64,000 bases of DNA from Candidatus Multivorans sp. (GCA_965247095.1 OZ251997.1:3968001-4032000), one strand, 5' to 3'. Shown: positions 2,860-58,106, counted from the first letter of the stretch. Notes: a model not told the origin generated them from the letters alone. Program-made: numbers and translations.

Positions 2860-3702
2860 TTGCAGCTTTGCTTCATCGACGAAGCCGGGGATCTGGGAGT
2901 ACTTCGCGACCCACCCGCACCGAACGACCAACCCGTCCTCGTCGTAGCGGGGCTCTTCGTTGACGCCGCCAGGCTCGCGAGCCCGACGGCCGACTACCTC
3001 GATCTCAAGCACCGTTTCTTTCCTAACCTGAACTATCCCTCAGCGCGGCGTCTGGACCGCATCCTGCCGGAGATCAAGGGAGCGGAAGTCCGCAAGCACG
3101 CAACCCGCGGGAACGCGAGGCAAAACCAACATGCGATCGGTTTCCTCGACCACATCGTGGGTCTGTTGCGGCGACACGATGTCAGAGTGGTCGCGCGTAT
3201 CTGGATCAAGGCTCCAGGCTCACCGTTCAAAGGCACAGCCGTGTACACGTCCTCGATTCAGGGCCTGTGTACGTACTTCGAGCACTATCTGACCCAGTGC
3301 GACACACAAGGCCTGTGCATCGCAGACAGCCGCAACAAGAGCAAGAACCTGAGGGTCTCCCACTCGATCTTTACCCAGAAGTTCGGCACGGTTCCGAACT
3401 ACGAGCGCTTGGTCGAACTCCCGACTTTTGGACATAGCGACAACCATGCCGGCCTCCAGATTTGCGACATCGTCTGCTCGGGGCTGCTGTACCCGATCGC
3501 GTGCTTCGCCTACTGCACCGGACACGTGAACAATGTGCATGTGCAATCGGGGGCCTCGCGGCTGAGGAGCCGCTACGGGCCACAGTTGAAGAAACTCCAA
3601 CATCGCTACTACGATGTCGGAGCTAGCCGCTATGTCGGCGGAGTGGTGGTGTCTGATGACGTCAACCAAAGTAGCGGCGCCTTGATGTTCAGCAGCCAAT
3701 AG
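2860..3702 (+). CDS. DUF3800 family protein (predicted RNase H-like nuclease)
   Basis: N-terminal FIDEAG, internal EIKG, IADSR, and GLQICDIV (QxxD) motifs typical of DUF3800; TTG start. Confidence 0.75.
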   Translation: MQLCFIDEAGDLGVLRDPPAPNDQPVLVVAGLFVDAARLASPTADYLDLKHRFFPNLNYPSARRLDRILPEIKGAEVRKHATRGNARQNQHAIGFLDHIVGLLRRHDVRVVARIWIKAPGSPFKGTAVYTSSIQGLCTYFEHYLTQCDTQGLCIADSRNKSKNLRVSHSIFTQKFGTVPNYERLVELPTFGHSDNHAGLQICDIVCSGLLYPIACFAYCTGHVNNVHVQSGASRLRSRYGPQLKKLQHRYYDVGASRYVGGVVVSDDVNQSSGALMFSSQ

Positions 3703-46752: not shown

Positions 46753-47115
46753 ATGCGTCACGGAGTTGGCTACAAGAAACTCGGCCGGACCACGGCCCAC
46801 CGGCGGGCCATGTTCCGCAACATGCTCGCCTCCCTGGTCGTACACGGCCGGATCCGGACCACCCTGGCGAAGGCGAAGGCCCTTCGTCCGGTCGCCGAGA
46901 AGCTCGTCACCAGGAGCCGCGAGGACTCCGTCCACGCCCGGCGCCGGGTGCGCCGCTGGCTCCCCAATCGCGACCACGTCAAGAAGCTGTTCGACGAGAT
47001 CGCTCCCCGCTACGCTGACCGCCCCGGCGGCTACCTGCGCATCACCAAGCTCGGCCCCCGCCGCGGCGACGCCGCCGAACTGGCCGTCATCGAGTTCGTC
47101 GACACCGACGAGTAG
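46753..47115 (+). CDS. rplQ: 50S ribosomal protein L17
   Basis: [24 protein letters not shown]. Confidence 0.98.
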   Translation: MRHGVGYKKLGRTTAHRRAMFRNMLASLVVHGRIRTTLAKAKALRPVAEKLVTRSREDSVHARRRVRRWLPNRDHVKKLFDEIAPRYADRPGGYLRITKLGPRRGDAAELAVIEFVDTDE

Positions 47116-47441
47116 CGGCCCTGGGAACCCGGGTGGCGCGGTCCGCGCCACCCGCGACACACTCCGTGCGCCCGTCACCGGGCGCACGGATGACACGCGG
47201 GCGTCTCGCCCGCATCCGGAAACGGCGTGGCGCGGCGGCGTCGGTTGCACCCGCCTGCAGCGGGCCGAAGGAGGGGGTCCCAGCGGCCGCTCGCGCTTTC
47301 GTGGTGAAAAGGGAAGGGTGCGCTCGCTTCGGTCGGCTGCGCTCCGGTTTGGCGTCAGACGATGAGTGGACGTCGGCCGTCGCTTGCCGACAGCCCGCTG
47401 GGACCCCCTCCTTCGGGCCACTGCAGGCTGGACGTTGTCGG
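46888..47441 (+). repeat. ~550-bp direct repeat, copy A (rplQ 3' half + downstream region + hairpin element)
   Basis: Colinear with 49726-50272 with scattered substitutions. Confidence 0.93.
47250..47431 (+). repeat. ~180-bp hairpin element, copy 1
   Basis: 37-nt terminal inverted repeat (3 mismatches) enclosing conserved core TCGCTTCGGTCGGCTGCGCTCCGGTT. Confidence 0.9.
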
Positions 47442-47569
47442 ACGCCGAGGCGGGAGTCCGCGAGGTCGCCTTCATGCCGTTGGTACCGTAGAGTTGGCTT
47501 CGTCGCGACCCCGTTCGGGACCGCTGTTCGCCGGATCGCGCAGTGTGTTTCTCGCACTACACTGAGACC

Positions 47570-48439
47570 ATGGTAAAAGGAAGTTCACTCGTGAAGCCCC
47601 ACTTACTCCCCGCGCTAGCGCTGATAGTGGCGCTACCCGCCGATGCCTATGGCCAAGCGAAGCTCTCTCCCTCGTGGCTAGAGTGTTTCTCGCCCAGCGA
47701 GTGCGAGGTCCGCGTGTTTAGGGCTGGCTGGCACAATAGGAAGGGGCGTTTGCGACTACTCGCGGAACGGGCTGCTAGCACCTGTCAGGTGGCAGGGTAT
47801 TCGCACTATGTTGCAGGGGCGCCCATTAGCGACGTTCGGCACCTCATCCAGCGCGTGTACTTCACACACGACGATGCGCCGCCTGCTCGTCCCTGCTCGT
47901 TCTCCGCGAGTCCTGAACTTGAGGCTGAGGCCAAAGAGATGGCAAGGGTCAACGGTTACTCGTGGCCGGTGGGCCAGGTGCCACTCGAGACAGAACCGTC
48001 GTGGACCTTCGAGCCCGGGGAGAACGACTGGGGCGAGGCAGTGCCGTTCTTGGACGAGATCGCTTCGCCCTTCGTCTCTGCCTTGCGAAGTGACCAAGAT
48101 GACCTTGTCGGGAGTGTGTACCTGACGCGAGACTGCTCTGCCACCTTGACTGTAGGCCGACTCGGTGCTGAACCGGGCGATTGGTGGGCCTACACCGACG
48201 GTCAGTCCGGCTACGACGACCGAGTTTTGGAGGTCCGAGTAGATGGCGCTACGGTCAAGAATCAGGGCCAGCGAGTGACCATACCGACTGCTGGCCTAGT
48301 CGCGTCGAGTGAGCGAACTTTCGGCGTAGCTGTTCGATCTGCGGAGTACGAGGACAACGCAGCGTTCGAGTGGACCGTTGCCGACCGCGACCGGGCGACC
48401 ATAAAGAGACACTTCCCCCACTGCGTAGAGTCGCCTTGA
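47570..48439 (+). CDS. Hypothetical secreted protein
   Basis: 289-aa ORF, signal-peptide-like N-terminus, six Cys, less GC3-biased codons than neighbours; TACACT 6 nt before ATG. Confidence 0.6.
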   Translation: MVKGSSLVKPHLLPALALIVALPADAYGQAKLSPSWLECFSPSECEVRVFRAGWHNRKGRLRLLAERAASTCQVAGYSHYVAGAPISDVRHLIQRVYFTHDDAPPARPCSFSASPELEAEAKEMARVNGYSWPVGQVPLETEPSWTFEPGENDWGEAVPFLDEIASPFVSALRSDQDDLVGSVYLTRDCSATLTVGRLGAEPGDWWAYTDGQSGYDDRVLEVRVDGATVKNQGQRVTIPTAGLVASSERTFGVAVRSAEYEDNAAFEWTVADRDRATIKRHFPHCVESP

Positions 48440-48773
48440 TCGTCAGCAGCTCCCACCAAGGGTCCCGGGCCTCACCCTCCGAGGGCGGGGCGCTATGGAA
48501 GAAGCGGCCTCAGGTCCTCTCCTACGGGCTCGTTTCGACGTAGAAGCGGCACACGACAGGTCGATTTTAGCGATGCCGGTCGGGCTCGGCTCCCGCAGAG
48601 GCGTCGCCGCCGAGCCTTTATCGAATCCGTCGGCGGCGACGAGTAGCTGGATGCGCGCCGATGGCGCCGCAGTCGCTGGAGTGTGGCGGCGTCGGTTACA
48701 CCCGCCTGCAGTGGACTTCTACTCAAGTCTCGTCCGAGGGTCAATGACCGAGGAGTGCATAGCCCGACGACCT

Positions 48774-48953
48774 CCAGCCTGCTGTGGTCCGGGGAGAGGG
48801 TCCCAGGGGGCTGTCGGCAAGCGACGGCCCATGTCCCTCCATGAACCGACACCAAACCGGAGCGCAGCCGACCGAAGCGAACGCTCCCTTCCCTTTTCAC
48901 CCAGAAAGCGTGAGCGGCCCTTGGGACCCTCTCCCCGGACCGCAGCAGGCGGG
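48774..48953 (-). repeat. ~180-bp hairpin element, copy 2
   Basis: Same core on minus strand; stem variant GGGGAGAGGGTCCC/GGGACCCTCTCCCC. Confidence 0.9.
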
Positions 48954-48980
48954 TACCGCCGAGATGCTTCGGCCGGCTAG

Positions 48981-49304
48981 CTAGCTCGACGCCGCCGCTG
49001 GAGCGGCTCGAGCCGGATCTACTCTGATGGTGACCTTGGCATCGGCGTCCAGCGCGGCCAACATCTTCATCAGACGATCCAGCGTGAAGCGTCCGAGGTC
49101 GGCGTTGCGGATGCGAGAGAAGTCCGCCGCGGCGAACCCGCTCAGCTTCGCCGCTCTGCGTACGGTGAGCCCACCGTCGTCCAGCACGGCAATGATCCGC
49201 GTTGCGAGGACAGCCTTGGCCTGCTTGAGGTCGGCCTGAGGGTCGCCGAGGTCCCGGAAGATGTTCCCACTCCCGTGAATAAGCTCGATGTCTTCTTGAC
49301 TCAA
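48981..49304 (-). CDS. XRE/HTH_37-type antitoxin (HigA-like)
   Basis: GSGNIFRDLG, AAKLSG..ADFSRIR, FTLDRLMKML; TTG overlapping toxin stop. Confidence 0.85.
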   Translation of the reverse strand: MSQEDIELIHGSGNIFRDLGDPQADLKQAKAVLATRIIAVLDDGGLTVRRAAKLSGFAAADFSRIRNADLGRFTLDRLMKMLAALDADAKVTIRVDPARAAPAAASS

Positions 49305-49651
49305 GGCAGTAGCTCCTTTCTCAGCCTTGTCAGACGCTTCCGGATCAGGTCGATCTCGCTCTTCGGGGTCCTGATGCCGGATTTCGACTTCTTCTGGTAC
49401 GCGTGGAGAACCCACAGGGACCCGGCCATCTGAGTCAGGTAGACGACCCGGTAGGCATCGGTCCGATAGCGAACGGCGATCTCCAACACACCGGAGCCGA
49501 GACCTGTGAGTGGCTTGGCGATGTCGGCCTTTCCTCCCTCCGCAGCGATTGTCAGGGCGGTGTTCATGCGGTCTCGAACGGTGCCCGGGAACTTCTCGTA
49601 GGCCTTTCGGGCTGCCCGAATCCACCCGATCGGCCGCGTGTCACCGTTCAC
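49301..49651 (-). CDS. RelE/ParE-superfamily toxin (HigB/Gp49-like)
   Basis: AKPLTGLGSGVLEI, AYRVVY, VLHAYQKKS..TPKSEIDLI; toxin-first order; GTCA-TATC-TGAC inverted repeat upstream. Confidence 0.87.
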   Translation of the reverse strand: MNGDTRPIGWIRAARKAYEKFPGTVRDRMNTALTIAAEGGKADIAKPLTGLGSGVLEIAVRYRTDAYRVVYLTQMAGSLWVLHAYQKKSKSGIRTPKSEIDLIRKRLTRLRKELLP

Positions 49652-49725
49652 CCCGGCATGTTGTCAGATATGACTACGCCTGTCAGCCCCCAACCCCCGG
49701 CTTAGCTGGTGAGCTTTGGCCATGA

Positions 49726-49953
49726 CCGGTTGCCGAGAAGATCATCACCCGGAGCCGCGAGGACTCCGTCCACGCCCGGCGACTGGTCCGTCGCTGGCTC
49801 CCCAATCGCGACCACGTCAAGAAGCTGTTCGACGAGATCGGGCCTCGCTTCGCCGACCGCCCCGGCGGCTACCTGCGCATCACCAAGCTCGGCCCCCGCC
49901 GCGGCGACGCCGCCGAACTGGCCGTCATCGAGTTCGTCGACACCGACGAATAG
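49726..49953 (+). pseudogene. rplQ: rplQ 3' fragment (75 codons, no start, in-frame TGA immediately before)
   Basis: [24 protein letters not shown]...IEFVDTDE*, five aa differences from intact L17. Confidence 0.92.
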
Positions 49954-50082
49954 CAGCCTTGGGGACCCGGGTGGCGCGGTCCGCGCCACCCGCGACGCAC
50001 TCCGTGCGCCCGTCACCGGGCGCACGGATGACACCCGGGCGTCTCGCCCGCATCCGGAAGCGGCGCGACGGCGTCGGACCCA

Positions 50083-50263
50083 CCCGCCCGCAGCAGGCCG
50101 AAGGAGGGGGTCCCAGCGGCCGCTCGCGCTTTCTTGGTGAAAAGGGAAGGTTCGCTCGCTTCGGTCGGCTGCGCTCCGGTTTGGCGCCGGTTGATGAAGG
50201 GATATGGGCCGTCGCTTGCCGACAGCCCGCAGGGACCCCCTCCTTCGGCCCACTGCAGGCTGG
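50083..50263 (+). repeat. ~180-bp hairpin element, copy 3
   Basis: Part of direct repeat copy B; same stem type as copy 1. Confidence 0.9.
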
Positions 50264-50481
50264 ACGTTGTCGGGCACCGTGCCGACGGTAGGCGCACACC
50301 GGACGCTGCCTAGCGTTGGCGTCGAGAGCGCCCCACATCTTCATCAGCCGACTGCGGACGTAAGGCGAGAGTCCCTATTGGTCCACATTGTCGGCTTTCT
50401 GGCACGTGAGACGGGCATTTCCGTCAGCTAGTCGCTCAACTGGAGTTGCCCCGGTTTGGTGGACAGTTTGTGTTTAGGGAA

Positions 50482-51330
50482 TCAGGCGGCCTCTCGGTAC
50501 GCCTCTTCGAAGTTGACGGGTGAGCGTTGTCCGATCGCGGAATGGCGACGATGAGTATTGTACCAGCCCTCGATGTAGCGAAAGAGTTCCGCCTTCGCTT
50601 CGGCGTGATTTCGGAACGTTGTCTGGTCGAGCAGCTCGCACTCGAGGCTGGCGAAGAAGCTCTCGGCCATGGCGTTGTCGTAGCAATCTCCGACGGAACC
50701 CATCGAGAGTGCGATGCCGGCATCGCGGCAGCGGTTCCCGAACGTCAGGGAAGTGTACTGGCTGCCTTGATCGGAGTGGTGGATCACGCACTCGGGTCGC
50801 CGCTGGGCAATCGCCATCTCCAGAGCCCTGAGCACGAGGTCGGTTGCCAGAGAAGAGTTCATTGCCCAGCCGACGATTCGCCGACTGAATACGTCCAGGA
50901 CGATCGACAGGTACACGAACCCGGCAAGCGTCGGAACGTAAGTGATGTCCGCGACCCACAGTCGATCCGGGGTCTCAGCCACGAACTGCCGATCAACGAG
51001 GTCCGGCGCCGGGCGAACCGAAGCGGCGCGACGGGTCGTCGTCGGCCGTTTGCGGCGGCTGATGCCCGCCAGGCCGGACTCTCGCATCAGTCTGGCAACG
51101 CGCTTGCGGCTCACTGCGAACCCACAGTCGGCCAGTTCAGCCTGAATCCTCGGCGCCCCGTAGGTCCCTCGGCTCCGTTCGTGAATCGCCCGCACCCGCT
51201 CGGCGAGAGCGGTGTCCGACTTCTCCCTGGCCGACCGCGGGCGCTTCAGCCAGGCGTAGAACCCGCTCGTGGAGACGCCGAGCACGCGGGCCATCGTCGT
51301 GACGCGGAACTCGGCCTGGTGCGCTCTCAT
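50482..51330 (-). CDS. IS3 transposase OrfB (DDE integrase core)
   Basis: WVADITY, HSDQGSQY, DNAMAESFF; frame open upstream to an A-AAA-G -1 slip site. Confidence 0.95.
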   Translation of the reverse strand: MRAHQAEFRVTTMARVLGVSTSGFYAWLKRPRSAREKSDTALAERVRAIHERSRGTYGAPRIQAELADCGFAVSRKRVARLMRESGLAGISRRKRPTTTRRAASVRPAPDLVDRQFVAETPDRLWVADITYVPTLAGFVYLSIVLDVFSRRIVGWAMNSSLATDLVLRALEMAIAQRRPECVIHHSDQGSQYTSLTFGNRCRDAGIALSMGSVGDCYDNAMAESFFASLECELLDQTTFRNHAEAKAELFRYIEGWYNTHRRHSAIGQRSPVNFEEAYREAA

Positions 51331-51635
51331 GAACCGGAAGACCCCTTCGGTTCCGTCTCCCGAGCGAACCAGGCCGTTGCTTTTGCCAGGATCTCCCGCT
51401 CTTCCCGCAGCCGGCGATTCTCCCGGCGCAGACGGCGCAACTCCTCACGCTCCGCCGTCGTGCTCCCGTCGCTGCGGCGACCCTCGTCCCGGTCCGCCTG
51501 GGCGACCCAGTTCCGGATCGACTGCGCTGACGACTCGAACTCGCGGGCTAGTTGGTCCGGGCTCCGCCCGGACCGGACCAGATCCACCATCTGCTGCCGG
51601 TACTCTGCTGGGTACCGGCTCCTTCTTCTCGACAT
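51327..51635 (-). CDS. IS3 transposase OrfA
   Basis: YPAEYR, HTH ..IRNWV, leucine zipper ELRRLRRENRRLREEREILAKA. Confidence 0.93.
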   Translation of the reverse strand: MSRRRSRYPAEYRQQMVDLVRSGRSPDQLAREFESSAQSIRNWVAQADRDEGRRSDGSTTAEREELRRLRRENRRLREEREILAKATAWFARETEPKGSSGS

Positions 51636-51808
51636 CGTGGATACCTCCTCTTCCAAGAATGAGGTGTCCACCAAAACGGGTCAAGCTCACCATCGAAGTG
51701 GATCAGGAGTTGGTTGGGCGCCAAAGGAAGTCTCGTATGAGAGCCGGATGGGACAGTACTCCTTGCTTCTCTCTCAGCCGGAACTCGATGCGGTCGCCGG
51801 GGCAACAC

Positions 51809-51872
51809 GGGGATGAAGTTACGGGCGACCGCCGTGTGGCTGAGCTCCACGACCATGCCCGGATGGTAGCAA
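51809..51872 (-). repeat. Diverged copy of the methyltransferase promoter and first 16 codons
   Basis: Ungapped 51/64 match (hand count) to 55532-55595; MVVELSHTAVARNFIP vs MVVEPSRTPTGLSFIP. Confidence 0.8.
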
Positions 51873-51982
51873 CCTGCTTCGACCGAGATGGCTGCCTCGG
51901 TCCAGCAAGGGGCCGGGCCGCCCAACTCGGTCAGAGAGGATCGCCAGGATCGGCACTCCGGCCGGACGGTGGGTCTGACCCG

Positions 51983-52495
51983 CTACGCGCCGAAGCAGTC
52001 CAGGGCCAGCTCGGAGGTCTTCCGCTCGTGCCATCTGTGCGTGTAGTGCCGGCGAAGCGGCGTACTGCACCGATGGCCGACAGCGACCAGGATCTGCTCG
52101 AGCGAACTGAGTTGCTCGCGGAATCCCAGCATGATGCCGCATCGGAGGCTTGCGTTGTCGGGGCCGCAGAACAGCCAGTGGCTGTCGGTCCTGGTCACGG
52201 CGTGAGCCCAGAGAGATCTCTCCCCATCGTCTAGCTCGGGCAGGTCCGATCTGCTCATCTCCAGCGACGCGTAGTCGCGGTTGCTGACCGTATGGACCGC
52301 GTCGAGCGACTGGCGGAGTTGCTCGGGATCGATGTGCTGCTGGAAGTCCCGGTTCTGATGCCCGGTCTGCGTCTCGGACACGCAGACATCCGTGGTCTGC
52401 ACGCGGTATCCGCCCGCGAGAGCGGTCCATGCACTGGCGCGGTGACACTCGATGATGACGTTGGCGTCGACCAGTACGATGGAACGCTTGTGCAC
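51983..52495 (-). CDS. PIN-like domain protein
   Basis: VLVDANVII, CVSE, LDDGERSL, GPDNA give PIN-type acidic spacing; downstream of HTH-ImmA gene. Confidence 0.65.
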   Translation of the reverse strand: MHKRSIVLVDANVIIECHRASAWTALAGGYRVQTTDVCVSETQTGHQNRDFQQHIDPEQLRQSLDAVHTVSNRDYASLEMSRSDLPELDDGERSLWAHAVTRTDSHWLFCGPDNASLRCGIMLGFREQLSSLEQILVAVGHRCSTPLRRHYTHRWHERKTSELALDCFGA

Positions 52496-52536
52496 GGTCT
52501 TCGATCAGGAACGAGCAGGTTGGAGACTCGGAGCGC

Positions 52537-53688
52537 TCAGATCTCGACCGGGCATGTGAGCCCATGGCTGGCAAGAAGTCGGTCCACGCCCTCGATCGTG
52601 CAGTCGAGCAACGTTGCAGCGCGGCGCATGGAGAGCAACCCCTGGTCGAGCGAGCGGGCGATCACAGCCAGGAACTTCTTCGAGAATGGCGGAGGAGGGC
52701 TGTTTCTCACGACCCAGGTCGTTGCCTCCCTGGATACGGTGGGCTGACCGTTGTTGCGGAGGCGGTCCGGAGGCAATGACCGGGCAGTTTGCCTGGAGAT
52801 CTGACGAAGATCGACGAGCCGCCAACGAAGGGCAGACGAGCTGACGCGGAGCGTCTCGGCGGTCGAGTTGAGTCTCTCGATCAGGGCATCCAGGGCCAGA
52901 TCGGACCAGGGGCCGTCCTGCATCAACGTGGCCTCGGGCATGAGGATCGCGGAGGCGAACTTGTCGGCGAGTTGCTCGGCACGGTCGCGGCTGGTGTCGC
53001 GGGCCGACTCGAGGTGTTGCGGGGGCATGGCGTCCCAGGTGAGGAGATGGAACAGTTCATGCGCGAGGTCGAAGTGACGGCGACCCTCCGCCTCATCTCG
53101 GTTGATCAGCGCCACGTCCAGGCGTGGCAGTCGGCAGGCCGCGCCGGAGATTCCGGGTGGAGCGTCGACCATCAGGACCAGGACACCCAGACGGTCGTCC
53201 ATCGTCTGTGAAAGGCGTTGGGCGGGAACGGGACCGAGATCGAACTCGGCGGCGAAGCGGTTTCCGGCCCACACGGCTTCCTCGTAGCTCGACTGCTTCG
53301 TCAGCCCGAGCGTTCGACGCAGCGGAGGCGGCGCCAGGTCGAGCCGTGTTGCCAGGTGCAGGTGGGCCGCGATCCAGCGGCCGGCACGGTCCTCGTAGTC
53401 GCGGAGTTCGGCGTCGTTGACGCTGGCCCGGCCTCCGGTGTGGGCCAGCCGCCATGAGAAGCGCCCATCGCCGGCGAGGAGAAACGGGTCCGTGAAGTAC
53501 CGAACCGGCGCGTCGAGTTTGTCGACGGCGAGTAGCAGTTCCTCCGCCGTTACTCGGCGATTGCCGGTTTCGATGGCCGATACCGTTTGGCGGTCCTTGA
53601 AGCCGAAGAGGCGGGCCAGTTCTTCCTGGCTGAGGTGGCGCCGCTTCCGCAGCGCCTTGATCCTCGCACCGATGAGGGCGGTCGTCAT
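52537..53688 (-). CDS. XRE HTH + ImmA/IrrE (Peptidase M78-like) protein
   Basis: LSQEELARLFG..VSAIETG HTH; RRHFDLAHELFH (HExxH); EQLADKFASAILMP. Confidence 0.9.
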   Translation of the reverse strand: MTTALIGARIKALRKRRHLSQEELARLFGFKDRQTVSAIETGNRRVTAEELLLAVDKLDAPVRYFTDPFLLAGDGRFSWRLAHTGGRASVNDAELRDYEDRAGRWIAAHLHLATRLDLAPPPLRRTLGLTKQSSYEEAVWAGNRFAAEFDLGPVPAQRLSQTMDDRLGVLVLMVDAPPGISGAACRLPRLDVALINRDEAEGRRHFDLAHELFHLLTWDAMPPQHLESARDTSRDRAEQLADKFASAILMPEATLMQDGPWSDLALDALIERLNSTAETLRVSSSALRWRLVDLRQISRQTARSLPPDRLRNNGQPTVSREATTWVVRNSPPPPFSKKFLAVIARSLDQGLLSMRRAATLLDCTIEGVDRLLASHGLTCPVEI

Positions 53689-53820
53689 GGCGCGGTCGCT
53701 CCGTGGGTGGAAAGGGTCTTGTGTGGGGCTCGACGCTGATTCGCTACGGTACACTCGAAACAGACGACACGCAAGGAGATCTTGCAGATAAAAGAGTGCG
53801 GAACGAGGGCCGCCCGCGGG

Positions 53821-53958
53821 CTAGCCCCCGCGTGGAATGGACGAGCCGGCGGCCGCCAGCCGCCCAGCACAGGACACCGGCTTCAGCGGCTGGTTCGACT
53901 GCGCTGGCGGCATCCCCAAGGCCCTGAGGATTCTCCGTGCCTCTTCAACGTTGGCCAA
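53821..53958 (-). pseudogene. Truncated BsuBI/PstI-type restriction endonuclease N-terminus
   Basis: TTG overlapping MTase end; MANVEEARRILRALGMPPAQSN resembles the family N-terminal EA..IL..LG.P..Q.N pattern, stop after 45 aa. Confidence 0.6.
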
Positions 53959-55579
53959 CGGCGACCTTCCGTGGGATGCCGGCGGACAGAATGTCCGCGA
54001 TCAACCGGTCCAGATTCTCTATCGGGTCGGCGAGTTGCCGGACACGCTCTCCGAGCGCGACGATGGTGTCGTGAGCCGGCAGCGGCATTGCGCGCAGCTC
54101 GGTCGCGTTGACCTGCGTGTTGCCGTTGAGACACCTGAAGTAGGTGTCGAGCAGGCGGCTGTTGTAGAGCGCGGCCAAGCCCCATGCCTCTTCGTCAGAG
54201 AGCGAGCCGGTGCGTCGGTAGATGTAGTTCAGGTGGTTTTCGAGACCCACGCGCGGCACGGACATGGACCGGGCAAGGTACGGCGCCGCGGCCAATCGGC
54301 GGGCCTCCTCCTTCGCGCTGAATCGCCGCATGAGAACGTAGTTGCGGTTCGGAAGGAGCAGTGCCTCGGCGCCTTGGCGCTTGATGTACTCCGGCTTGTG
54401 CCGATGCAGCGGCCAGGTGACCTGCATCGGACGCACGTGATTCATCCAGAGCAACGGAACGTGTGTCTGCGGCACGCGACCTTCACGGTCGACCAGGGTT
54501 CGCGCGCGGAAGGGCACTACGGGTCCCGTGGAGATACCGAAGCCCAGACTGGCCAATGTGTTCGGCCATGCGTCGACCAGGTCAAGAACCTGAGCGTCCT
54601 CGTCGGAGACGGGTAGTCGCAGTACGCGGTCGCGGTCATCGAGATCAAGCGCCGCCTGAAGCGACGTCATACGGCGGTGCGACTCGTTCAGATCGGCAAC
54701 CCCGCGGCTGCTGGATATCACCAACGGAGCTTGGCGATCTTGCCGCGGGCCCTTGAGCCGAGTGCCGTGGAGAATGACATTCTCCTGCAGGACTTCGTCG
54801 CGTTTGAATGCCTCTCGACGCGATCCGAATGCGTGAACCAGGGTCGGACGAATGAGGTTGAAGAAGACCTGCCGGAACTGCCGGAAGTACAAGCCGGAGG
54901 CAAAGCTCCTCGGCGTGATGGAGATGAAGTCGCCACCCGGGCGGACCAGGACGGCGCTGACCGCCATGAACAGGGCGTAGATGTTCGGTTGCCCATGAAC
55001 CACGTTTGAAGCGAGAACCGCCCGCGGGTCGCTCTTGTTGATCTTGAGGTACGGCGGGTTGGAAATGGTGATGTCGAACTCGCGGTCACCTGACTCGTAC
55101 GGAACCAGACTGCCTTCACGCCGGAGTGCTTCCGCGTGCGCCATGACGAAGTCTCTCGACTCGATGCGCGCCGCAAGGCGGATTCCATGCACCTCCATGC
55201 ACCACTCCCGGAGGTAGCCGAGGCCCACCTTCAGAGGGCCGGCCAGTTCGGCGTCTAGCTCGTAGGCGACAAGGTCAATCCGGTTCGTCGATGGGTCGCG
55301 ACCGGCGAGCGCTTCAACGGCCGCGCAGCAGAGGATGCCCGCACCGGCGGCAGGGTCCAAGACCCGAAGGCGGTCACCGCAGACCTGGATCTGGGCCGCC
55401 ATGAAGTCAGCGGCTCCCACAGGCGTCAAGTAGAGGCCGTGCTGCTTTCGGTGCGTCTCGGACTTGGAGGCGACGTGGTATTGGCCGATGCGGTCCGCGT
55501 ACTCGGTAGGTCGCTCCCCCGGCGCTGGAGGGGGGATGAAGCTAAGGCCGGTCGGTGTGCGGCTGGGCTCCACGACCAT
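53945..55579 (-). CDS. N6-adenine DNA methyltransferase, gamma class (Eco57I-domain, BsuBI/PstI-like)
   Basis: GLYLTP, motif I VLDPAAGAG, motif IV SNPPY, ITPRSFASG, STGPVVPFR, RRFSAKEE, ENHLNY, GNTQVNATELR. Confidence 0.9.
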   Translation of the reverse strand: MVVEPSRTPTGLSFIPPPAPGERPTEYADRIGQYHVASKSETHRKQHGLYLTPVGAADFMAAQIQVCGDRLRVLDPAAGAGILCCAAVEALAGRDPSTNRIDLVAYELDAELAGPLKVGLGYLREWCMEVHGIRLAARIESRDFVMAHAEALRREGSLVPYESGDREFDITISNPPYLKINKSDPRAVLASNVVHGQPNIYALFMAVSAVLVRPGGDFISITPRSFASGLYFRQFRQVFFNLIRPTLVHAFGSRREAFKRDEVLQENVILHGTRLKGPRQDRQAPLVISSSRGVADLNESHRRMTSLQAALDLDDRDRVLRLPVSDEDAQVLDLVDAWPNTLASLGFGISTGPVVPFRARTLVDREGRVPQTHVPLLWMNHVRPMQVTWPLHRHKPEYIKRQGAEALLLPNRNYVLMRRFSAKEEARRLAAAPYLARSMSVPRVGLENHLNYIYRRTGSLSDEEAWGLAALYNSRLLDTYFRCLNGNTQVNATELRAMPLPAHDTIVALGERVRQLADPIENLDRLIADILSAGIPRKVAVGQR

Positions 55580-55630
55580 CCGTCGATGGTAGCAAGGGTG
55601 CCAGTCGCCGGCTTCGCGCACCGTCGACAT

Positions 55631-55813
55631 CCAGCCTGCTGTGGGGACAGGGAGAGGGTCCCAAGGGGCTGTCGGCAAGCGACAGCCCATGTCCCCCCAT
55701 CAGCCGACAACCAACCGGAGCGCAGCCGACCGAAGCGAACGCTCCCTCCCCTCTTCACCAGGAAAGCGTGAGCGGCCTTTTGGGACCCTCTCCCTCGGAC
55801 CGCAGCGGGCGGG
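55631..55813 (-). repeat. ~180-bp hairpin element, copy 4
   Basis: Same core on minus strand; stem type as copy 2. Confidence 0.9.
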
Positions 55814-55854
55814 TGCGTCCGATAACGGTCCGGTCGCCGCGGCGCCTTCGGCGG

Positions 55855-57951
55855 CTAGTCCTCTCCCTCCGCCCGCTTCGCTTCGGCGATGATCTTTTCT
55901 TGGATCTGCCGGGGGACTTCCTCGTAGTGGGAGAAGCCCATCGTGAAGCTGGAGCGGCCCTGGGTCATTGAGCGCAGGGCGGGGGCGTAGGTCAGCATCT
56001 CGGCCATGGGCACGGTGGCCTTGACGATCTGGGCGTTGCCCTTGGCTTCCATGCCCTGGGGGCGGCCGCGGCGGGAGGACAGGTCGCTCATGATGTCGCC
56101 CATGAAGTCCTCGGTGGTGTTGATGTCGACCTGCATCACCGGTTCAAGCAGGGTCGGGGCGGCCTTCGCCATGGCGTCCTTGAAGGCCAGGGAGCCGGCG
56201 ACCTTGAAGGCTATCTCGGACGAGTCGACGTCGTGGTACTTGCCGTCCTGGAGCCGGACCCGGAAGTTGCCGACCGGGTAGCCGGCCAGGTAGCCGCGTG
56301 CGGCTGCCTCGAGCAGGCCCTTCTCGACCGCGGGGCGGTAGCTCTGGGGGATCGAGCCGCCGAAGATCTCGTCGACGAACTCGTAGTCCTCCGGGGTGGG
56401 GACGGGCTCCATCGTGATCGTGCAGTCGGCGAACTGGCCGCGGCCGCCGCTCTGCTTCTTGTGCCGACCGTGGCCGACCGCGGGCCTCCTGATCGCTTCG
56501 CGGTAGGGCACCTTGGGCGGGTGCAGGATGACCTCGACCTTGGACCGGGCCTTCAGCTTGGAGACCGCGATTTCGACGTGGAGCTGACCGGCGCCCGAGA
56601 GCAGGAACTCTCCCGTCTGCGGGTCGCGCCCGGCCCGCAGGCTCGGATCCTCCTCGACCAGCCGGAGCACAGCCTCGCCGATCTTCTCTTCATCGCCCTT
56701 CGTCTTCGGCTCGATGGCGAACGAGATCGCGGCGACCGGAGGGGTGGGAAATCCGAGCCGAAGCGGCCGTTCGCGGCTCGTGATCGAGTCGCCGGTGACG
56801 CTGCTCTTGAGCTTCGCCACGCCGCCGATGTCGCCCTCGAGGAGTTCGGGGATGTCCTGGCCGGTCTTGCCCTGCATGTGCATCAGGTGGCCGACGCGTT
56901 CCGCCTCCTCGTGCCGGGGGTTCCAGTAGCCGGTGTCGGAGGTCATGCGGCCCGCGGCCACGCGAAGCAGGGAGATGCGGCCGGTGAAGGGGTCGTTCAT
57001 GGTCTTGAAGACGATCGCGCTGACCGGCGCGCCGTCGCCGCGCTCGAGTTCTACGGGTTCTCCGCCGAGATCGGCAGCCGGCATCGGAGGCGCGCCCATC
57101 GGCGACGGCAACAGCTTGACCACCGCGTCGAGCAGAGCCGAGTTGCCGACGCCGTGGCTGGCGGACGACATGGTGACCGGGAACAGCGCCCGGTTCCTGA
57201 TTGCGTTCTTGAGCCCCTCGACCAACTGGTCCTGATCGAGGTCGCCCTGGTCGAAGTAGGCCTCCATCAGGTCGTCGTCGCTCTCGGCGACCGCTTCTGT
57301 GAGCTTTCCCCGCCACTCCTGGATCTGGTCCGCCAGCTCTGCCGGCGGCTCGGACCCCTGACTGCGGCCGTTTCCGTTGTGGTCGTAGAGATAGGCCTTG
57401 CCGCTCAGCAGGTCGACGACGCCGGTGAAGTCCTTGCCGGCGCCGATCGGGATCTGCACCGGCAGCGCCATGCGGTCGAAGTTCTGCTGAAGTTCGGCGA
57501 TGCAGCCCTCGAAGTCGATGTTGTCGCGGTCCATTTTGGTCAGGTGCAGCATCATCGGCTGCTCCAGCCCCGCCGCGACTTCCCAGGCCTTTTCGGCCAT
57601 GACCTGGGTCGGCGATGCGGCGTCCAGGCACAGCAGGGCGGCGTCGGCGGCCCGCATGCCCGAGCTGGTCTCGTGAACGAAGATCCCGGAGCCGGGACAG
57701 TCGATCAGGTTGACCTTGTGCTCGCCGGATCCGTCCGACCAGGGCGTGTAGCAGACGGCGAGGCCGATCGAGATGCCGCGGCGGATCTCCTCCTCGTCGA
57801 AGTCGGTGACGGTGTTGCCGTCTTCGACCCGGTTTTGCCGGTTGAAGACGCCGCCGGTGTAGAGCAGGCCGGCGAGCAGCGTCGTCTTGCCGGCGTCGTT
57901 GTGTCCGACGACGGCGAGGTTGCGTATCTTGTCCGAACTTTCGAGTTGCAT
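55855..57951 (-). CDS. Elongation factor G paralog (EF-G2-like; alternative GTG 57966)
   Basis: GHNDAGKTT, RGISI, DCPG, TKMD, HKKQSGGRGQF, HDVDSSE, LLEPVM. Confidence 0.92.
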   Translation of the reverse strand: MQLESSDKIRNLAVVGHNDAGKTTLLAGLLYTGGVFNRQNRVEDGNTVTDFDEEEIRRGISIGLAVCYTPWSDGSGEHKVNLIDCPGSGIFVHETSSGMRAADAALLCLDAASPTQVMAEKAWEVAAGLEQPMMLHLTKMDRDNIDFEGCIAELQQNFDRMALPVQIPIGAGKDFTGVVDLLSGKAYLYDHNGNGRSQGSEPPAELADQIQEWRGKLTEAVAESDDDLMEAYFDQGDLDQDQLVEGLKNAIRNRALFPVTMSSASHGVGNSALLDAVVKLLPSPMGAPPMPAADLGGEPVELERGDGAPVSAIVFKTMNDPFTGRISLLRVAAGRMTSDTGYWNPRHEEAERVGHLMHMQGKTGQDIPELLEGDIGGVAKLKSSVTGDSITSRERPLRLGFPTPPVAAISFAIEPKTKGDEEKIGEAVLRLVEEDPSLRAGRDPQTGEFLLSGAGQLHVEIAVSKLKARSKVEVILHPPKVPYREAIRRPAVGHGRHKKQSGGRGQFADCTITMEPVPTPEDYEFVDEIFGGSIPQSYRPAVEKGLLEAAARGYLAGYPVGNFRVRLQDGKYHDVDSSEIAFKVAGSLAFKDAMAKAAPTLLEPVMQVDINTTEDFMGDIMSDLSSRRGRPQGMEAKGNAQIVKATVPMAEMLTYAPALRSMTQGRSSFTMGFSHYEEVPRQIQEKIIAEAKRAEGED

Positions 57952-58106
57952 CGACGCTCCCGTCACTGGCTTCGCGGGCCTTGTGTGGGGAGCCCGCTCG
58001 AGTCGCGGTTGGCCGGAATCCGGCCACCCTGCGCGGCGCGAATCTCAGGCTTGGAAACAGCCGCAGAAGATACCACGCGGCCGGCCGGCGAGGGCTCCCG
58101 CGGCGC

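Follow-up and report, generated by a model that had tools for sequence, protein, structure and literature searches.

This analysis concerns a 64,000-nucleotide stretch of the genome of a Candidatus Multivorans sp. (GCA_965247095.1 OZ251997.1:3968001-4032000), hereafter the window, and in particular the spacer between rplQ, which encodes ribosomal protein L17, and a paralog of the elongation factor EF-G. The spacer holds a genomic island together with four copies of a palindromic repeat, here called element A, and two copies of a shorter repeat, element B. Each copy of element A is about 215-230 bp long in the profile search and the alignment and carries long complementary arms (Table 1). An earlier reading of the window made from the DNA alone (the sequence-only reading) had pointed to four hairpin copies at these places; all four are there, with profile extents slightly wider than first given. 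Copy extents come from an iterated nhmmer profile search of the source genome (G000), a single contig of 4.617 Mb with 67.7% G+C.

The arms of the four copies measure 36-44 nt and are 77-92% complementary, and copy 4 is decaying, because its arms are only 77% complementary. Mean column identity in the four-copy alignment is 87%. A 26-mer and a second conserved block of the interior are invariant, and the arm differences that separate copies 1 and 3 from copies 2 and 4 are compensatory, in agreement with the earlier observation that the arms change together around a fixed interior. When copy 1 is compared with the genome by BLAST, copies 3, 2 and 4 are recovered with E-values of 7.8e-75, 4.6e-54 and 9.7e-48, respectively, and chance resemblance is therefore excluded. 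In copy 1 the tag GGCGTCGG occupies 47237-47244, the palindrome starts at 47248 and the 3′ tag ends at 47441. Folded as RNA, the sense strand of this copy reaches -130.5 kcal/mol (z -6.2) and its antisense strand -116.1 kcal/mol (z -6.7). Each copy lies 3′ of a co-oriented gene end, as had been proposed: rplQ (PF01196), an HTH_37 gene, a 228-nt rplQ 3′ fragment and the EF-G paralog stand ahead of copies 1 to 4, respectively. Orthologs of copy 1 are present behind rplQ in 14 other species.

Table 1. Element A, element B and neighbouring features of the rplQ/EF-G spacer (positions counted from the first letter of the window).
Feature	Position	Strand	Remarks
Element A copy 1	47228..47444	+	nhmmer 179 bits; resident behind rplQ
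Element A copy 2	48755..48975	-	nhmmer 172 bits; 6 nt downstream of the HTH_37 gene
Element A copy 3	50058..50283	+	lies in a ~560-bp segmental duplication that also spans the rplQ 3′ fragment and element B
Element A copy 4	55613..55834	-	nhmmer 167.5 bits; resident behind the EF-G paralog
Element B	47117..47220	+	~100-bp three-hairpin REP/BIME-like repeat located 5′ of copy 1, after the rplQ stop codon
Element B, second copy	49956..50058	+	in the duplicated block; 96% identity to the first B copy
rplQ (ribosomal protein L17)	46753..47115	+	PF01196, E 6.6e-38; own gene call
Duplicated rplQ 3′ fragment (pseudo-copy)	49726..49953	+	93.9% identity to rplQ positions 136-363
HTH_37 (antitoxin-like) gene	48981..49625	-	PF13744, E 4e-18; upstream of copy 2
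IS3-family insertion sequence (orfA, orfB)	50482..51674	-	PF00665, PF13276, PF01527; cargo beside copy 3
HTH_3 + Peptidase_M78 (ImmA/IrrE-like) gene	52537..53754	-	island cargo; same module elsewhere in G050
Eco57I-like N6 DNA methylase gene	53945..55630	-	PF07669, PF02384; cargo abutting the 3′ end of copy 4
EF-G paralog	55855..57966	-	five EF-G domains; upstream of copy 4

The order of parts in element A is read from an alignment of 103 copies, 14 from G000 and 89 from other species, the latter being biased towards an 18-mer of the core. From 5′ to 3′ the element opens with a G-rich variable leader and a GGCGTCGG-like tag; three variable bases then precede a conserved CACCCGCC stem base. The purine-rich 5′ arm of ~45 nt, the core and the pyrimidine-rich 3′ arm follow. 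Last come GGCTGGA and a second CGTCGG tag, past which similarity among copies drops off sharply. The core is a conserved, asymmetric, G+T-rich segment of ~115 nt. It differs between subfamilies by a 1-nt indel, and any reading frame is therefore broken. The leader consists of short tandem units (GGCGAC-like and GCCACGCCGC-like) that vary in number and length even among orthologs. Compensatory changes in the arms are almost all transitions, so that the purine/pyrimidine asymmetry is kept. No T-run follows the stem. In being shorter than 300 bp, non-coding and bounded by terminal inverted repeats, element A has the form of a miniature inverted-repeat transposable element (MITE).

Several details of this anatomy stand on their own. 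The leader is a hypervariable GC-rich microsatellite of GGCGAC-like and 10-nt units that spans 20-90 nt from the stop codon to the palindrome; examples are found in L200-L214 (3′ of the M23-peptidase stop), L049, L032, L100 and L045. The 5′ arm is a polypurine tract with a Shine-Dalgarno-like GGAGG, and the 3′ arm holds its CCTCC-containing complement (for instance, 47265-47282 and 47404-47417). L136 carries a tandem pair of A copies (3062-3301 and 3354-3593) that are 94% identical, and the 5′ stem base is duplicated in the copies at L044:6860-6985 and in L207 (G016, 3′ of the M23-peptidase gene). The tandem pair and the duplicated stem bases are suggestive of repeated insertion, or of slippage, at the 5′ end.

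G000 yields 30 nhmmer matches, which correspond to ~22 loci of element A: 14 uninterrupted full-length copies, five with an insert of ~68 nt at one internal site, one copy split by 1,360 bp and several arm-only fragments. The copies are spread over 0.27-4.2 Mb in both orientations, and the genome-wide copy count that the sequence-only reading had proposed thus finds a dispersed family. Pairwise identity within G000 has a median of 67% and a maximum of 90%, the latter belonging to a duplicated block in the window. The exact core 18-mer occurs in at least 119 stretches of a species-representative genome collection, and the full element (scored at E<=1e-10) in 94 of them. All 94 are in metagenome-assembled genomes labelled Acidobacteria, Thermoanaerobaculia, Holophagales, Vicinamibacteraceae or "Candidatus Multivorans", many of them from sponges or corals; the other 25 stretches, labelled as other phyla, were rejected as chance matches with no element present. 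Among 24 sampled genomes of the same genus, 22 carry element A, typically with at least about 20 scored matches each, and two (G003 and G022) are without any match; G013 has one match and G011 weak matches only. The element is absent from all 16 genomes of 11 other families of the order, and no match was found in plasmid or phage collections. An Rfam match had been named in advance as a finding that would overturn the claim of an undescribed element, and none appeared, either at the gathering score, where the whole window returns two tRNAs only, or at E<=1 for 47000-56100. Literature searches surfaced no description of the family, an absence that is not proof of novelty.

Copies of element A are strongly oriented with respect to genes. 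Judged by our own codon-score gene caller (3,730 calls), 18 of the 22 G000 loci lie directly behind an intact co-oriented gene, one lies behind the rplQ fragment and three do neither, with median gaps of ~12 nt from stop codon to element and ~120 nt from the 3′ end of the element to the next gene. Across species, 98 of the 103 aligned copies could be scored, with a gene end within 120 nt as the criterion; 72 have the end of a sense gene upstream and 28 that of an antisense gene downstream, counts that include orthologs and are hence non-independent. Among copies with one arrangement only, 54 are sense-upstream versus 10 antisense-downstream, while 18 show both and 16 neither. Random orientation was another finding named in advance as refuting; a bias is seen instead. 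The upstream genes are functionally unrelated and include those of a thiamine pyrophosphate enzyme, a coenzyme A transferase, a pyrroloquinoline quinone dehydrogenase, a FadB-like protein, a symporter, peptidases, and NYN and TPR proteins, among others. Of 39 distinct upstream genes, 25 end in TAG, versus 36.8% among 3,027 confident genes of G000, and CG often follows this stop codon. A fixed stop codon, or a CTAG or TA duplication, was considered as the end of the element and rejected, the distance from stop codon to core ranging over 0-109 nt with no TA peak. Copies less than 2 kb apart can face opposite ways (4015228+/4016755- and 4201653+/4203159-), which argues against a replication-strand rule of the kind expected for IS200/IS605-derived (PATE-like) elements.

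Orthologous sites differ widely in what they hold. These comparisons are between species, and exact junctions are not readable in them. The rplQ/EF-G spacer has no element in L179, where it is 95 bp long; it has stem-base mini-hairpins or half elements in L182, L184, L185 and at the far end of L195, the rplQ copy only in L195, the EF-G copy only in L191, and both in L188 and L198. The sequence-only reading had noted that copies 1 and 4 bracket the island. Their positions do so, but the bracketing is incidental, since L188 and L198 are island-free relatives that carry both copies in the same convergent arrangement. Another example is the M23-peptidase site, which holds subfamily 2 in G000, G053 and G016, subfamily 2 with element B inserted in G056 and G049, subfamily 3 in G024 and G012, another subfamily in a more distant clade, and terminal (stem-only) remnants in G050, G055, G008, G043 and G010. 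The same site is vacant in L219, L224 and L225, with ~7 nt between the two stop codons. Further sites are filled in other species and empty or remnant-only in G000. Such between-species polymorphism of empty, filled and remnant sites is the occupancy pattern of a MITE.

Ectopic gene conversion is the best explanation for the presence of different subfamilies at one site. The copy behind rplQ belongs to a foreign subfamily in G055, and in G056 the 5′ arm of that subfamily is fused to the resident 3′ arm. A chimeric ortholog of this sort (L175, with the 5′ arm of one subfamily and the 3′ arm of another) shows that ectopic conversion has taken place. Orthologs have also changed in situ by compensatory steps: behind rplQ from A-T to T-A via A·A intermediates, and behind EF-G from G-C to A-T and from G-C to C-G. 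The arms of orthologs are 85-96% identical to G000 (converted copy excluded), versus 76-88% at the third codon positions of rplQ, and interior identity to G000 falls to 67% in distant species.

Covariation of the arms was scored on a 57-pair structure. In this model 91.6% of cells are paired and 40 of the 57 pairs have changed on both sides (493 cells), values of pairing and covariation that none of 500 shuffles reaches. The structure has a covariation score of 0.261, whereas slid controls reach 0.054-0.077, and RNAalifold finds compensatory changes in 26 of 32 pairs. Among about 4600 cells, helices 1-4 contain 4318 Watson-Crick cells, 37 G-U cells (0.8%) and 67 A-C cells. RNA-level selection on the sense strand is expected to tolerate G-U and not A-C; here G-U is no commoner than A-C, which argues for upkeep of the palindrome at the DNA level rather than for RNA-only selection. 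What appears as covariation of the arms is a set of diverged subfamilies, each with two arms that are strictly Watson-Crick complementary. The covariation is real, and it reflects a DNA palindrome kept perfect, not a helix selected as RNA.

The interior behaves differently from the arms in part. Its apical hairpin is wobble-rich on the sense strand only (321 G-U vs 23 A-C) and is 80% paired, and its P2 helix covaries, with 19 double changes at columns 90/120. In a sample of 52 of the 103 copies, the interior has a median z of +0.27 (sense strand) and +0.40 (antisense strand), no stabler than shuffled sequence, and the greater stability of the sense strand follows from its being G+T-rich. Exceptional stability belongs to the whole palindrome only, as seen in copy 1. 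A detailed secondary structure of the interior was tried and set aside, as minimum-free-energy folds disagree and the pairwise scan is swamped by sequence conservation; the solid structural parts are P2 and the outer stem only, and the apical helix is weak. The sequence-only reading had deduced selection on a single-stranded structure. Its basis, strong covariation, stands, but neither the tolerance of G-U in helices 1-4 nor the interior stability beyond composition that mark a structured cis-acting RNA is found.

Evidence on transcription comes from contigs of RNA libraries of related strains. These contigs cover rpoA, rplQ and EF-G. One stops at the rplQ stop codon and another reaches 47180, inside element B, while two continue EF-G for ~40-100 nt into the 5′ arm of copy 4 (X18 record 4, 55756-56070; X19 record 13, 55792-56092). 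Missing cover over the interior of copy 1 and most of the island is uninformative, the contigs being those of relatives. The contigs are compatible with read-through into element A; they are silent on strand, ends and level, and DNA carry-over is possible.

Other mobile DNA is nested in element A. The ~68-nt insert in five A copies of G000 (1954445, 3041965, 3597840, 2416764 and 1639546) belongs to element B, a repeat with three GC-rich hairpins that has at least 200 copies in G000 at a median identity of 89%; among the best matches, it stands behind rplQ in G000 and G016 only. The two-hairpin core of B occurs at an identical position of A (model ~72) in different subfamilies, including also L204, L206, L208, L180 and L181. 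This shared position reflects either site-specific insertion of B or spread of one insert by gene conversion. At 1495208-1496567 (L019:1595-2954), a single-copy IS110-family element (PF01548, PF02371) with a 322-aa DEDD transposase splits one A core and has the same orientation as that copy. Relatives of IS110 are known to target repeat hairpins. In another species an IS3-family element (L043:4096-5285; orfA of 114 aa, orfB of 282 aa) interrupts an A copy. The insertion sequence that adjoins copy 3 in the window is related to it.

Candidate enzymes for element A were sought among its neighbours, the sequence-only reading having proposed a search for a HUH, IS110 or tyrosine recombinase gene flanked by the same ends. 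Among the loci examined, none carries A ends. The sole Y1_Tnp (IS200-like) gene of G000 (2898169-2898813) lies in a B-flanked region (2897998-2898987; L199:1243-2232), in which B forms 96-nt inverted arms that are 94% complementary, with extra tandem 34-nt hairpin units. Element B and this gene form a REPtron/TIRtron-like arrangement of the kind reported for REP systems and for Acidobacteria by Di Nocera et al. (2013; PMC3733652). Of 30 Y1_Tnp loci, drawn from 25 of 42 genus genomes, not one has an A match (E<=0.01) within ~1.5 kb, and none of the five tyrosine recombinase (PF00589) matches in G000 adjoins an A copy.

The island itself is a mosaic. In G000 a direct repeat of ~560 bp (46888-47452 vs 49726-50284) comprises the rplQ 3′ end, B and A, with 87-94% identity and a spacing of 2,832-2,838 bp. 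The rplQ/EF-G spacers of relatives shuffle the same modules, namely the methylase, HTH_3-Peptidase_M78 with an open reading frame (ORF) of 170 aa, and HTH_37 with an upstream ORF, and in close relatives these are accompanied by duplicated pieces of rpoA′ and rplQ. The Eco57I-like methylase occurs also in G016, G024, G053 and G050 and is fragmented in G055. G055 (L232) holds a full second rplQ with the last 70 nt of rpoA, and G050 (L234) a shorter piece. In both, an A copy truncated at model position ~89-90 is joined directly to the rpoA′/rplQ duplication; these junctions lie inside a partial A copy and therefore indicate homologous or illegitimate recombination. Since the 5′ sides of copies 1 and 4 are pinned to stop codons, the cargo sits 3′ of both. 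There is no sign of site-specific exchange at element A. At another G000 locus, ~2.2 kb of DNA that is extra relative to six other assemblies (1436507-1438707) adjoins the 3′ end of an A copy (1438707-1438923) and includes a 370-aa ORF without a Pfam match.

Taken together, these findings are read, with a probability of roughly 55%, as follows: element A is an old, genus-restricted, non-autonomous palindromic repeat, similar to MITEs and to repetitive extragenic palindromic (REP) sequences, that is read into the 3′ untranslated regions (3′ UTRs) of the genes ahead of it. It would have been mobilized in trans by an enzyme now probably inactive in G000, where the element is probably no longer moving. 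The pairing of the arms would be maintained on the DNA itself, through correction of one arm against the other or through selection for a perfect duplex, and transcripts of upstream genes would read through A, which would form a long hairpin in their 3′ UTRs. Copies 1 and 4 are the residents of rplQ and the EF-G paralog, between which the island landed; copy 3 arose with the duplicated rplQ′-B-A block, and copy 2 belongs to the HTH_37 gene. The sequence-only reading had listed, among its suggestions, a repeat of this kind mobilized in trans. That part is favoured by a dispersed, genus-restricted and non-coding family with presence/absence, decay and nested REP, IS110 and IS3 insertions. Its more specific form, a REPIN (a pair of REP units in inverted arrangement) of the RAYT (REP-associated tyrosine transposase)-like gene of G000, is not borne out.

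Several observations weigh against this interpretation. No autonomous parent framed by A ends is seen among the loci examined, in a search that was not exhaustive, and no cognate transposase is identified: the 30 Y1_Tnp loci are without A, the sole IS110 lies inside a copy to which it is unrelated, and no tyrosine recombinase is adjacent. Where two copies are highly identical, they are orthologs from different assemblies or neighbours in a local tandem, and there are no near-identical non-orthologous copies; mobility is therefore historical and not observed. No target-site duplication is found, and neither TA nor TAG peaks at a fixed offset. Because the family-wide GGCGTCGG/CGTCGG tag lies on both flanks, a duplication is inseparable from the ends of the element itself; a tag-like sequence is present at only one of four empty sites. 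A purely selfish relic also leaves several features unexplained: copies favour the sense orientation and are pinned to stop codons, TAG is in excess, and the arms evolve slowly in place and undergo compensatory changes in situ.

These last features are the strength of the main rival, a host-used (exapted) 3′-UTR module whose perfect ~45-bp stem, transcribed with the gene ahead of it, would serve in the RNA as a barrier to exonucleases, a processing site for a double-strand-specific RNase or a factor-independent stop, with copies kept by selection. This could be a secondary role of an element of mobile origin. The sense orientation close to stop codons, ortholog arms more conserved than rplQ third codon positions, compensatory changes between orthologs behind rplQ and EF-G, and contigs of relatives that extend from EF-G into copy 4 all agree with it. 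Yet G-U is nearly absent, unlike in helices selected as RNA, the same sites have often lost their copy or its centre, and two species of the same genus do without any. The stem has no trailing T-run, the interior is no stabler than shuffled sequence, and the RNA contigs show neither strand nor ends and may stem from DNA, which leaves a host function as a possible but clearly less probable account. A more doubtful proposal combines the two ideas: a portable gene-end module, in which a mobile palindrome would home in on transcription units at their 3′ ends, in sense, and then be maintained and used by the host. Homing might proceed via single-stranded DNA exposed by transcription or via an RNA intermediate, and the ~45-bp perfect stem might act as a structure for 3′-end RNA processing or protection, or as a barrier to transcription or replication. 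If true, it would account for the 54:10 bias, the stop-codon pinning, the TAG excess, the hypervariable leader and the slowly evolving arms.

The remaining explanations fare worse. That element A is the REPIN-type partner of a RAYT- or TIRYT-like tyrosine (HUH) transposase, moved as folded single-stranded DNA, is quite unlikely: the Y1_Tnp gene of G000 is flanked by B and not by A, at least seven A-bearing genomes (for instance, G007, G019, G006 and G024) have no Y1_Tnp, and neighbouring copies are oppositely directed within 2 kb. Y1_Tnp genes are nevertheless present, one in G000 and at least one in each of 25 of the 42 genus genomes, and the A-free or A-poor G003, G022, G013 and G011 also lack them. 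The A ends bear a CGTC-containing tag like that of one REP super-family, but published CGTC REPs have stems of 8-9 bp and loops of 4-5 nt, unlike A (Di Nocera et al. 2013; PMC3733652). That element A is a folded recombination site, similar to attC or dif, that marks off exchangeable cassettes and so built the island is highly improbable, even though the window copies sit at module boundaries, the cargo of the spacer differs in G016, G024, G055, G053 and G050, and extra DNA adjoins the 3′ side of another G000 copy. A 5′ side pinned to a stop codon means that any insertion into the spacer falls 3′ of the copy. The copies are single and dispersed in both orientations behind ordinary genes with no adjacent integrase, the G055 and G050 junctions point to homologous or illegitimate recombination, and the near-perfect stems are without the bulged bases of attC. 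The integron-like cassette site proposed by the sequence-only reading is thus unsupported: copies stand behind ordinary housekeeping and metabolic genes, and rpoA′/rplQ duplications with module shuffling explain the mosaic of the island. Least credible is an independent family of ~20 paralogous small-RNA genes with their own promoters. The conserved core, whose 18-mer is exact in 94 real copies, the covarying P2 helix and the apical region wobble-rich on one strand would suit it. However, the element begins a few to tens of nucleotides past the stop codon and therefore leaves no room for a promoter, no Rfam family matches, the apical helix is only 80% paired around an interior with z near 0, subfamilies differ by a 1-nt core indel, and copies are lost freely.

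Comparison with known systems places element A within a class. REPINs moved by RAYT transposases are described by Bertels and Rainey (2011; PMC3116915), and REP/RAYT systems and TIRtrons by Di Nocera et al. (2013; PMC3733652). REPs, BIMEs (bacterial interspersed mosaic elements) and REPINs are, like A, extragenic, palindromic and multi-copy, found mainly 3′ of coding regions where the flanking genes are unidirectional or convergent, and they share complementary inverted arms, a CGTC-containing end tag and restriction to a lineage. Element A differs in its size, with arms of ~45 bp and a core of ~115 nt against REP units of 20-40 bp, in its low number of ~20 copies per genome, and in standing beside no Y1/RAYT gene; it has the inverted arms of a REPIN layout, yet these are ~45 bp long and ~115 nt apart. 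The TIRtrons and TIRYT genes of Acidobacteria, described as long-inverted-repeat families that are possibly dimers (PMC3733652), fit element B and not A.

ERIC/IRU and Correia (NEMIS) elements are transcribed palindromic MITEs of enterobacteria and Neisseria. Like A, they are non-coding imperfect palindromes, of 100-200 bp, in transcribed intergenic DNA, which can form a long RNA hairpin in the 3′ UTR and vary in presence among related species. Element A has no TA or other target duplication found, a stronger sense bias, end tags in direct repeat, and another phylum and sequence. The attC sites, such as the Vibrio VCRs, are also folded imperfect palindromes after a co-oriented gene in which structure is kept more than arm sequence. 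Unlike them, A is dispersed and not arrayed one-way in tandem beside an integrase, has no integrase or attI nearby, has near-perfect stems about twice as long and a conserved core, and follows housekeeping genes instead of cassettes. Element A is best read as a new, genus-specific family within the palindromic MITE/REP-like class already known.

For annotation, element A explains a recurring intergenic block of ~220 bp in widespread uncultured symbionts of sponges and corals, and neither an integron-like system nor an RNA gene of a new kind need be invoked at the island. The family offers a natural case of a long palindrome that stays Watson-Crick perfect over species-level time, with ectopic conversion among its copies. 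It also attracts other mobile DNA, from REP-like repeats to IS110 and IS3 elements, and is strongly oriented with transcription, features that lie outside the standard picture of a selfish MITE.

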